64,000 nt of DNA from assembly GCA_040954595.2 (NCBI GenBank), contig CM082578.2:7797519-7861518 (forward strand). The letters run 5' to 3'. The stretch is from Balanoglossus misakiensis (lineage: Eukaryota > Animalia > Hemichordata). Below, in pieces: positions 52,301 through 53,969 of the stretch. Positions within the stretch are counted from its first letter, which is position 1. Every line of letters begins with the position of its first letter. The notes beneath the pieces are model-generated. The model saw only the letters and a list, made by a program, of their open reading frames with translations, was not told the DNA's origin and searched no databases. Position numbers and translations under genes: made by a program.

Positions 52301-53969
52301 CGTGAGACTATGGACCAAGCTGTTAATGTTTCCACAGAACGTGCTCGACATAAGCCCTTCTCAGGATGTTGAACTGGTACTTAAATGCGTTGAAGATGTG
52401 TTTGTTGACATCTGCTCTGTCACAGAGGTACGGTTCTATAAGTGTGATTTGCCAATATATGAGCTGGAACAAAGCACTGGGTGTTTCCGTCAATTAATTG
52501 TGACAAACTATAGGACAACTTTTCTCACTGTACATTCATTTCCCTTACATGTAAACCGTTGTTTTATAGAGTGCCAAGAACAAATGTACATGCATTTCTC
52601 TTTGAAGGAAACAACTTCGAGGGACTTGTATGAAGAGGAAGTCTCAACTTTCAAAGCAAAACTGCAAACGTACATGAAAGATGTAAAATCCGAAAAATCA
52701 GTCAGTGACGAAGATCTCAAGCAATATCTGGATGAAACCTTTCAGGTGAGGGGTGGGAATTCTTGACATTGCTAATTTAACGTGTAAAATGCCATCCCTA
52801 AAACACGAATTTGGTAATGCTTCCTGTATTGAAATGTAAACTGCCATGTCGATATTTGCGTCTCAACATAAGTCGATAGACTTGCAGCGGCAAGTTAGAA
52901 TTCATAAGGAAAATATTCAGGAGCATTACAGTTTCAAATGAAGGGTAGATGTCAATGCTTTCATGTATCAGCAAGGAGGATTTGCATGATTGGCAAATCA
53001 CGTGGATAGTGTATATTTATACACTTAATAAGATGGGATATGTTCTATGAATGCACCTGTGCCCATCGGTAGTACTTTGAACATGACTATGCACTTTCCA
53101 ATAATGGCTTGTTAACTCTCGCGGTTGCCATTTTAGGATCTGGATGGCTCCTTTGACAAAATGGTCGCCTTAGACGAGCTGTTTAACACTTTGGCCGGAT
53201 ACAAAGATGAGGTACATGTATAGATGATTATGTTTAATTTTTAGATTGAGTTTACAACATAAGTTTCGCTGTTTAAGAAATCGAGACTGAGTCATTTTGA
53301 ACTGAAAGGAAACTTCACTATTATGAATTAAGTCATCTTTGCGTGTTAAAGTGTTCTTAGCCAATATCATTCCTTATATTTACAGGCCAAGTCCCATATC
53401 GACATATTTGAATTTCAGTGTGACTGAGTGTACTTGTCTCATTTGATATGATTATTTGATGAGGTTTCCTGACCAAAATTCACGATTAAATTTGATAATT
53501 ACCACCGTGCTTCATCCTACAGATCATAACAGCATTGCACAGCGATGAATATTGCAAGAAAGAACACCACGCTGAAAGATTTGAGGGGCTGATAGCTTCC
53601 TTGGTGGAACATCCCTACGAGCAGATACCCGCTGCCAGGTATGAAGCGCTTCATCCAAGACCACAGGCTACTTATGAAGGCCTCCGGGGGATGCCACAGA
53701 CCCCTCCACACTACCAAGACCTGTATCCAGAACCCAAGTCCCAGTATACAGAGCTGCAGCGCCAGCAGCAACACCTGGACACGGGAGCTACACGTCCATC
53801 AACACAGACACAGTATGAAACGCTGCAGTTGCAACCGCAGACGGAATACACTCGGCTTCATCATGGCGGACAGCAGGATGGCCAATCGACAGAAATCGCC
53901 GCACACTATCAACCACTCTCCAAAGACCCCAACCCACCACAATACGAAAGTGTCCGGTCTGATCAATAA
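34387..53969 (+). CDS. Plexin-2: tandem paralogue with complete ectodomain and TM, degenerate GAP lacking the RBD, and a tyrosine-motif (ITAM-like) tail, ~1810 aa
   Basis: 31 exons: 34387-35478 (alternative ATG at 34375), 36162-36341, 36956-37090, 37695-37795, 38207-38339, 38656-38815, 38961-39057, 39348-39468, 39590-39730, 43736-43837, 44146-44239, 44565-44755, 45278-45432, 45687-45804, 46081-46217, 46937-47119, 47442-47535, 47736-47987, 48262-48438, 49598-49829 (TM), 50038-50132, 50269-50387, 50524-50589, 50858-50932, 51242-51308, 51516-~51671 (donor uncertain), 51774-51946, 52295-52427, 52608-52745, 53137-53211, 53523-53969. Exons 2-19 have the same lengths and phases as plexin-1. No internal stop or frameshift was found in any exon. 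Confidence 0.88.
35595..35709. mobile_element. MITE-like element with 19-bp terminal inverted repeats (2 mismatches), TA at both ends
   Basis: TAGACTGAAAGATTCAGTC ... GACTGAATCTTATAGTCTA around a GC-rich core in an otherwise AT-rich intron of plexin-2; no equivalent seen in the matching plexin-1 intron. Confidence 0.65.
39171..39226. repeat. (TTAG)n microsatellite, intronic
   Basis: agttagttagttag run with one interruption. Confidence 0.9.
39764..40012. repeat. (CATA)n microsatellite (~60 units), resuming at 43575-43605 after the satellite
   Basis: Directly visible. Confidence 0.98.
40013..43575. repeat. Satellite array, 87-88-bp monomer, ~40 copies, inside plexin-2 intron 9
   Basis: Consensus GAAGTTTCGCAAAGTCGAAAAATTGTCATTTTTGGATGATTTTCATGAGCTATAACCCATGATTTTTGTCAAAAA(A)TGACGAAATTTT repeated head-to-tail with few substitutions. 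Confidence 0.98.
43882..43999. repeat. (GAT)n microsatellite, ~39 units, intronic
   Basis: Pure tgatgatga run; source of the poly-Ser ORF on the minus strand. Confidence 0.98.
48800..48991. mobile_element. Degenerate MITE-like/foldback element
   Basis: Imperfect ~31-bp inverted repeats aactacatgacttgtgcgtgcgatctgtgcc ... ggcacagatttcgcgtggaggtcatgaagtt in a CpG-rich part of plexin-2 intron 19. Confidence 0.45.

Follow-up and report, generated by a model that had tools for sequence, protein, structure and literature searches.

A 64,000-nucleotide stretch of the acorn worm Balanoglossus misakiensis (GenBank assembly GCA_040954595.2, contig CM082578.2, positions 7,797,519 to 7,861,518 of the forward strand; hereafter the window, with coordinates counted from its first letter) was analysed computationally. 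It carries two tandem plexin genes, the second of which is called plexin-2 after its label in a preliminary description of this DNA. Plexin-2 is predicted to encode a hemichordate plexin without the Rho-binding domain (RBD), with a likely inactive Rap-directed GTPase-activating (GAP) domain and with three to four conserved tyrosine pairs in its C-terminal tail that fit the ITAM consensus (immunoreceptor tyrosine-based activation motif). At a rough probability of 0.66, the product is an activating receptor that is clustered by ligand and recruits a Syk-type kinase. The ITAM interpretation of the tail had been put forward in the preliminary description and is supported by the sequence comparisons reported here, which add the missing RBD, the eroded Rap-binding site and the ectodomain homogenised with that of plexin-1, the neighbouring gene, to what that description had noticed.

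Tyrosine pairs of the plexin-2 tail

The tail is encoded by the last exon of plexin-2 (53523..53969, +), which opens with the same final GAP helix as the last exon of the upstream gene plexin-1, at a phase-0 acceptor homologous to that of plexin-1's last exon (29261). In the translation, a single YEQIP motif (53616..53630, +) precedes three pairs of the form YxxL-x7-YxxL (pair 1, 53640..53684; pair 2, 53712..53756; pair 3, 53814..53858; all +) and an ITAM-like pair 4, YxxL-x8-YxxV (53907..53954, +). YEQIP is invariant in five of five close relatives and may be a docking site for Src-family SH2 domains, which we presume from its likeness to pYEEI. The motif layout and coordinates match those of the preliminary description exactly, as does its count of nine among ten tail tyrosines with Leu, Ile or Val at position +3. 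When ITAM is defined as Yxx[I/L]x6-9Yxx[L/I], with Syk and Shark as partners (10.1101/2022.03.04.482883), the tail contains three strict pairs and one ending in Val. A Pfam search with the last exon returned 0 families.

The earlier judgement that such a pattern is unlikely by chance was borne out by 200,000 shuffles of the 120-aa tail, in which two pairs arose 7 times and three pairs 0 times. Under a stricter null, with the nine YxxL/I/V blocks kept whole and placed randomly, three x7 pairs were obtained in 0.26% of trials, and a chance origin of the motifs was ruled out by the two nulls together. The six-frame translation of the whole window contains 14 such pairs, three of which are those of exon 53523-53969. 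The three x7 units are mutually identical at just 23-25 of 45 nt and are therefore not recent copies of each other, which excludes a recent internal repeat.

With the last exon as query, HMMER found 4 matches among 1.84 billion representatives (E 1e-15 to 3e-19), all of them RefSeq models of Ptychodera flava (XP_070557955, XP_070559791 (P0046), XP_070546327 and XP_070557200); a word-index search with the same query gave none at E<=1 among 126 candidates. In these models an RBD-less GAP remnant is followed by a tyrosine tail, the GAP lying beyond the coverage of the short XP_070557200, and the three models that cover the second GAP half are 44-53% identical to plexin-2 there. Over the first seven motifs the four relatives retain every tyrosine (28 of 28) and every +3 residue (28 of 28), compared with 75 of 268 other positions (28%). 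The spacer within pairs is 7 residues in 12/12 pairs of the relatives, and in 15/15 when plexin-2 is included, whereas the spacers between pairs vary (8-10, 18-19). Conservation of the tyrosines, of their +3 residues and of the x7 spacing, proposed earlier as a check on the motifs, was thus found throughout; pair 4 has a complete counterpart in one of the four relatives (P0048, x8).

The constant spacing also bears on an alternative in which the YxxL motifs are sorting signals and plexin-2 is a decoy or scavenger that clears the ligand of plexin-1. YxxL doubles as a clathrin-adaptor sorting motif, and the near-identical ectodomain and eroded GAP described below are compatible with such a role. 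Sorting motifs work singly, however, which leaves the 7-residue spacing in all 15 pairs unexplained, and we consider this explanation very improbable.

When the Sema exon alone was used as a less biased query, the best named matches came from Ptychodera, Saccoglossus and Glandiceps (44-56% identity), and 3 of 44 matches carried two to three consensus pairs within their last 220 aa, the other 41 having none. The three (P0005, P0007 and P0009) are all hemichordate, named 'plexin-B-like', with x7-x8 spacing and the pairs directly past the membrane with no GAP; this GAP-less set consists of XP_077988586 (Glandiceps) and XP_002730558 and XP_077867408 (both Saccoglossus kowalevskii). Of the five other hemichordate matches, four end within the ectodomain and one is a full-length plexin without the tail. 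A further model from Glandiceps talaboti (P0049, XP_077981100), one of three matches of a search whose query took in part of a tail, combines an ectodomain and an RBD-less GAP with five YxxL motifs, which form one consensus pair with different spacing. In the RefSeq models P0046 and P0049 the tail is joined to a transmembrane receptor. The names of the four Ptychodera models and of P0049 are automatic, plexin-A/B-like or uncharacterised, and do not mention the tail.

Local alignment to the plexin-2 tail, scored against 1000 shuffles each, gave 0 equally good shuffles for P0007, 2 for P0009, 4 for P0049 and 21 for P0005; plexin-1 (208) and its Ptychodera orthologue P0050 (393) were not significant in the same test. 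The result suggests common descent of the GAP-less tails and the plexin-2 tail, with the test probing shared pattern and not descent. Outside the hemichordates, 0 of 14 plexins have any YxxL/I/V past the last GAP helix.

Receptor structure and GAP remnant of plexin-2

Plexin-2 (34387..53969, +) is predicted to comprise 31 exons and 1825 aa, and its Sema-PSI-IPT ectodomain and single transmembrane helix are those of a plexin. Its tandem partner plexin-1 (10005..29647, +; predicted 36 exons, 2013 aa) has a full GAP and an RBD (Pfam Plexin_RBD, E 2.3e-14) and no ITAM pair in its tail. The exon model of plexin-2 was drawn by homology to plexin-1, with one open frame, AG/GT sites and equal intron phases; the plexin-1 model, likewise guided by homology, is also a single open frame. 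A search of sequencing runs with 49500-54500 listed no RNA data set, which counts neither for nor against the model. Ectodomain exons 1-19 (34387..48438, +), with a Sema domain match and hemichordate plexin matches, are 82.8% identical to plexin-1 in amino acids at 0.34 substitutions per synonymous site (dS), compared with 30% for the transmembrane exon (49598..49829, +), whose helix has no charged residue, and 45.5% for the GAP exons. A diverged, proline-rich juxtamembrane segment and the first GAP half together take up 49999..51308 (+), and the second GAP half occupies four exons (51774..53211, +; Pfam Plexin_cytopl, E 6.5e-11 and 2.9e-11). Intron 9 of plexin-2 (39731-43735) measures 4005 nt vs 286 nt in plexin-1, with a long CATA microsatellite at its start.

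Between the two GAP halves lies a gap (51516..51773, +) filled by one short exon of uncertain end (51596, 51671 or 51680), or by none if that exon is skipped, in place of about 250 aa of plexin-1. The RBD-bearing stretch thus amounts to at most 52 aa in plexin-2 and 27-36 aa in 4 relatives, vs 210-248 aa in 17 full-length plexins, and the RBD exons of plexin-1 found no match in plexin-2. A reading of 51516-51773 as two exons was rejected, as its introns (41 and 30-44 nt) would fall far under the minimum of 120 nt elsewhere. The 3' end of exon 51516-51671 resembles plexin-1 exon 27191-27319, which may be chance because the relatives have no such segment.

The split RasGAP fold is recognised in plexin-2 by Pfam Plexin_cytopl, and the Rap-contact residues and activation segment are eroded. 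Seven PlexinC1 positions, P611, N1005, N1009, Q1032, L1045, P1050 and L1054, show little or no variation among 14 plexins from outside the hemichordates; plexin-2 has D, K, F and D at the first four, a deletion at the fifth, and T and D at the last two. The numbers were mapped by spacing from PMC3787391, and in the activation segment the alignment may be off by one residue. That source reports lowered or abolished activity when any of the seven is mutated, modestly so for P1050A. From these changes the eroded Rap-GAP site of plexin-2 is likely inactive. An AlphaFold2 model was made of the relative P0048 (27-row alignment) as a stand-in for plexin-2. Its mean predicted local distance difference test score is 72.9, with high helix content in the core and low confidence in the tail (385-518), and its best matches are plexin intracellular structures (top 3ig3, E 9e-17); for the P0048 tail, the ESM Atlas gave no usable match.

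Points against an activating receptor

Several observations weigh against the activating reading and are gathered in this section. The last exon was itself the query for the four closest relatives, which therefore introduces a bias toward conserved tails, and all relatives are computed gene models, several of them partial. An upstream acidic residue is part of the extended vertebrate ITAM consensus, and Asp or Glu at -3 is found in 0 of 3 plexin-2 pairs, being present in pair 2 of P0047 and P0048. The tail family often has Ser or Thr at -2, and pair 1 of all four Ptychodera relatives contains a strict VxYxxL ITIM (immunoreceptor tyrosine-based inhibitory motif).

Such sites would suit a phosphotyrosine array whose output is inhibitory or mixed, its ITIM-like SxYxxL and VxYxxL bringing in SHP-1/2 or SHIP. 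In plexin-2 the sequence SQYTEL, in the second half of pair 2, fits [ILVS]xYxx[IVL] (definition in 10.1101/2022.03.04.482883), SxYxxL recurs 3-5 times in each of 8 relatives with a strict ITIM in 5 of the 8, and amphioxus SYK itself suppresses NF-kB (PMC13344425). The plexin-2 tail, by contrast, gave 0 hits to the strict ITIM [ILV]xYxx[LV] and one to the permissive SxYxxL. A fixed x7 within pairs and variable spacers between them fit ITAM, and a single-tyrosine ITIM needs no spacing. We regard an inhibitory or mixed output as unlikely. The preliminary description had noted that SQYTEL fits an ITIM, which holds for the permissive form, and that TQYETL and TEYTRL resemble immunoreceptor tyrosine-based switch motifs, which does not hold for the strict form TxYxx[VI], rejected here at 0 matches. 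Its caveat that the sequence leaves the sign of the signal undecided stands.

A second group of points concerns the junction at the RBD gap. The best in-frame donor (51671) scores 2.8 vs a minimum of 4.0 among 64 other donors, and the intron it would open measures 102 nt vs a minimum of 120 nt for all others. In a reading built on this weakness, the tail family is real, but a break or truncation of the gene at the RBD gap leaves the receptor of this species without the tail; every in-frame donor of exon 51516 is weak, and intron read-through reaches a stop at 51747-51749. Against a broken gene, a transcript that skips the exon (51308 to 51774) would stay in frame and use strong sites, and a GT at 51596, although its donor score is -5.2, lies exactly where it yields the 27-codon exon used by two Ptychodera models. 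All five exons downstream keep an open frame and the phase; the 321 codons past the gap contain no stop, an outcome seen in 1.5% of neutral simulation trials at distance 0.1 and in 0.12% at 0.2, and the GAP exons of plexin-2 and plexin-1 differ at a proportion of 0.36 of nonsynonymous (pN) and 0.73 of synonymous sites (pS). Because these codons are open and pN lies below pS, attachment of the tail to the receptor in B. misakiensis is likely despite the weak donor, and we give a broken gene a small probability, lower than that of an inhibitory tail.

The third group concerns the GAP remnant. Both invariant arginines are retained in plexin-2, namely the second Arg of the pair and the equivalent of Arg1001, so that GAP activity could persist; the first Arg of the pair is Lys (the pair reading Lys-Arg), likewise in Trichoplax. 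Plexin-2 could then be a dual receptor, with a remnant that acts, free of Rho control, on another GTPase of the Ras family and a tail that provides a second output. Retention of both arginines in P0048 and P0049 as well, and the intact fold predicted for P0048, agree with this, and so does the report that specificity for Ras vs Rap is set by which residue stands at Asn1005 (PMC3787391). The second arginine, however, is lost in P0045 and P0046, two of the four Ptychodera-type relatives covering the region, the activation segment is partly deleted, the branches are long and other relatives are entirely without a GAP. A dual receptor is accordingly given very little probability, and we prefer the activating receptor with an inactive GAP remnant.

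Plexin-1 departs from the Rap-GAP consensus at P611, N1005, N1009 and N1052 (A, I, C, V). P0050 (XP_070559788), its Ptychodera orthologue, retains Asn at N1005 and has the other three changes in common with it. With four changed positions, plexin-1 is therefore no textbook Rap-GAP either, a further point for the list above, and GAP specificity may be altered across the whole hemichordate lineage.

Paired history, known systems and proposed mechanism

The ectodomain and the GAP of the two genes have conflicting histories. In the membrane-proximal ectodomain plexin-1 is 79% identical to plexin-2 and 68% to P0050, whereas in the second GAP half it is 83% identical to P0050 and 45% to plexin-2. 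A 22-row cytoplasmic tree (P0047 was omitted as too short) places five RBD-less proteins in one clade (97/97) with long branches. In approximately unbiased (AU) tests, the 9-row GAP data rejected a grouping of plexin-1 with plexin-2 (p 7e-40), and the 6-row ectodomain data rejected one of plexin-1 with P0050 (p 8e-4). There is therefore no single history for ectodomain and GAP, and plexin-2 as a plain recent duplicate of plexin-1 is excluded by the reciprocal tests. Synonymous differences are unequal over the 19 ectodomain exons (p 3e-17), and 2 of 29 intron pairs are alignable. These comparisons are best fitted by repeated gene conversion of the ectodomains; a single ectodomain swap with conversion later is a possible alternative. 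Introns 16 and 17 of the two genes (47120-47735 and 19960-20700) align at 86% and 84%, beside exons 17-18, which have the lowest dS (0.08-0.09), and on this evidence their region is taken as the most recent conversion tract. Plexin-1 and plexin-2 are thus adjacent genes with similar ectodomains, apparently homogenised by recombination, and unlike tails, as in paired receptors. The near-consecutive accessions of P0050 and P0046 (XP_070559788 and XP_070559791) suggest the same tandem plexin pair in P. flava.

Beyond the plexin-2 gene, the tail of plexin-1 (29261-29647) has a 95-aa acidic extension with YEV/YEL motifs and a proline-rich motif. Its C-terminal GFSYG..LPK block is common to P0050, and the protein ends in SQV, which we take to resemble a PDZ-binding end. 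Elsewhere in the window lie a CUB/EGF-like transmembrane gene (57009-61004, +), whose tail contains PPEY and PPPSY motifs, presumably of the kind typical of WW-domain binding, and, at 3282-3668, one of the late exons of an SLC6 (sodium:neurotransmitter symporter) gene (Pfam SNF, E 1.3e-7).

Vertebrate paired receptors join similar outer parts to divergent ITAM/ITIM tails. The Alr proteins of Hydractinia, clustered receptors that cross the membrane once, show the same combination (10.1101/2022.03.04.482883); their ectodomains are of Ig type, and the output of plexin-2's partner is a GTPase-activating domain and not an ITIM. With the canonical plexins A-D, which are Rap-GAP receptors (PMC3787391), plexin-2 shares the ectodomain, exon structure, GAP fold and both invariant arginines, and it differs from them by the missing RBD, the eroded Rap contacts and activation segment, and the extra tail. 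A plexin ectodomain is coupled to ITAM signalling in the Plexin-A1/TREM2/DAP12 system too (PMC4605443), but there a separate adaptor carries the ITAM and the plexin's own GAP is retained, whereas in plexin-2 one chain bears both ectodomain and ITAM. Echinoderms and lophotrochozoans have Met-LP receptors (PMC6374515), in which a full plexin ectodomain is combined with a replaced inner module and which in starfish are reported to adjoin a plexin-B gene; their inner module is a tyrosine kinase, unlike that of plexin-2. The available part of the same survey covers starfish and lancelet, with hemichordates and ITAM unmentioned there, and reports truncated sponge plexins and kinase-tailed Met-LPs. 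A literature search on plexins with ITAMs, hemichordates, Ptychodera, Saccoglossus and coelomocytes found no such plexin described, with part of the results judged by title and in a coverage that leaves out most subscription journals. A plexin with a built-in ITAM tail is thus apparently an undescribed receptor architecture, with plexin-A1 in its TREM2/DAP12 complex and the Alr proteins as nearest precedents.

In the mechanism that we propose, binding of a ligand to the Sema ectodomain would cluster the receptor, the disordered tail would be phosphorylated by a Src-family kinase, possibly docked at the invariant YEQIP, and every x7 pair with both tyrosines phosphorylated would bind the tandem SH2 domains of Syk or Shark. 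Several pairs could amplify the signal, and the folded GAP remnant would provide spacing or a scaffold. In amphioxus an ITAM receptor is both bound and phosphorylated by SYK (PMC13344425), and Syk co-occurs with Bcl10, hemichordates being among the Bcl10 lineages (PMC5978004). Recombination would hold the ectodomain of plexin-2 close to that of plexin-1, and the two plexins would therefore read similar ligands with different outputs, like paired receptors. On a broader and more tentative view, which we hold to be possible but rather doubtful, an expanded lineage of plexins has become, in acorn worms, a family of paired receptors of the immune type, in which ITAM-tailed members, with a GAP remnant or with the GAP gone, are matched by gene conversion to GAP-bearing neighbours, so that the response to one class of ligand is either activation of Syk or a brake through a small GTPase.

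The known role of plexins is that of guidance receptors with Rap-GAP activity, and those of mammals gain access to ITAM signalling just via a separate adaptor; ITAMs built into plexins would, if the activating reading is true, be a new receptor architecture and would give the Syk pathway of invertebrate deuterostomes concrete receptors upstream of it. The hemichordate proteins appear to form a gradation, with an enzyme at one end, a pseudo-enzyme in between and a pure phosphotyrosine tail at the other end. If the broader view is also true, an activating/inhibitory system would have arisen from guidance receptors, with a GAP in the place of an ITIM.
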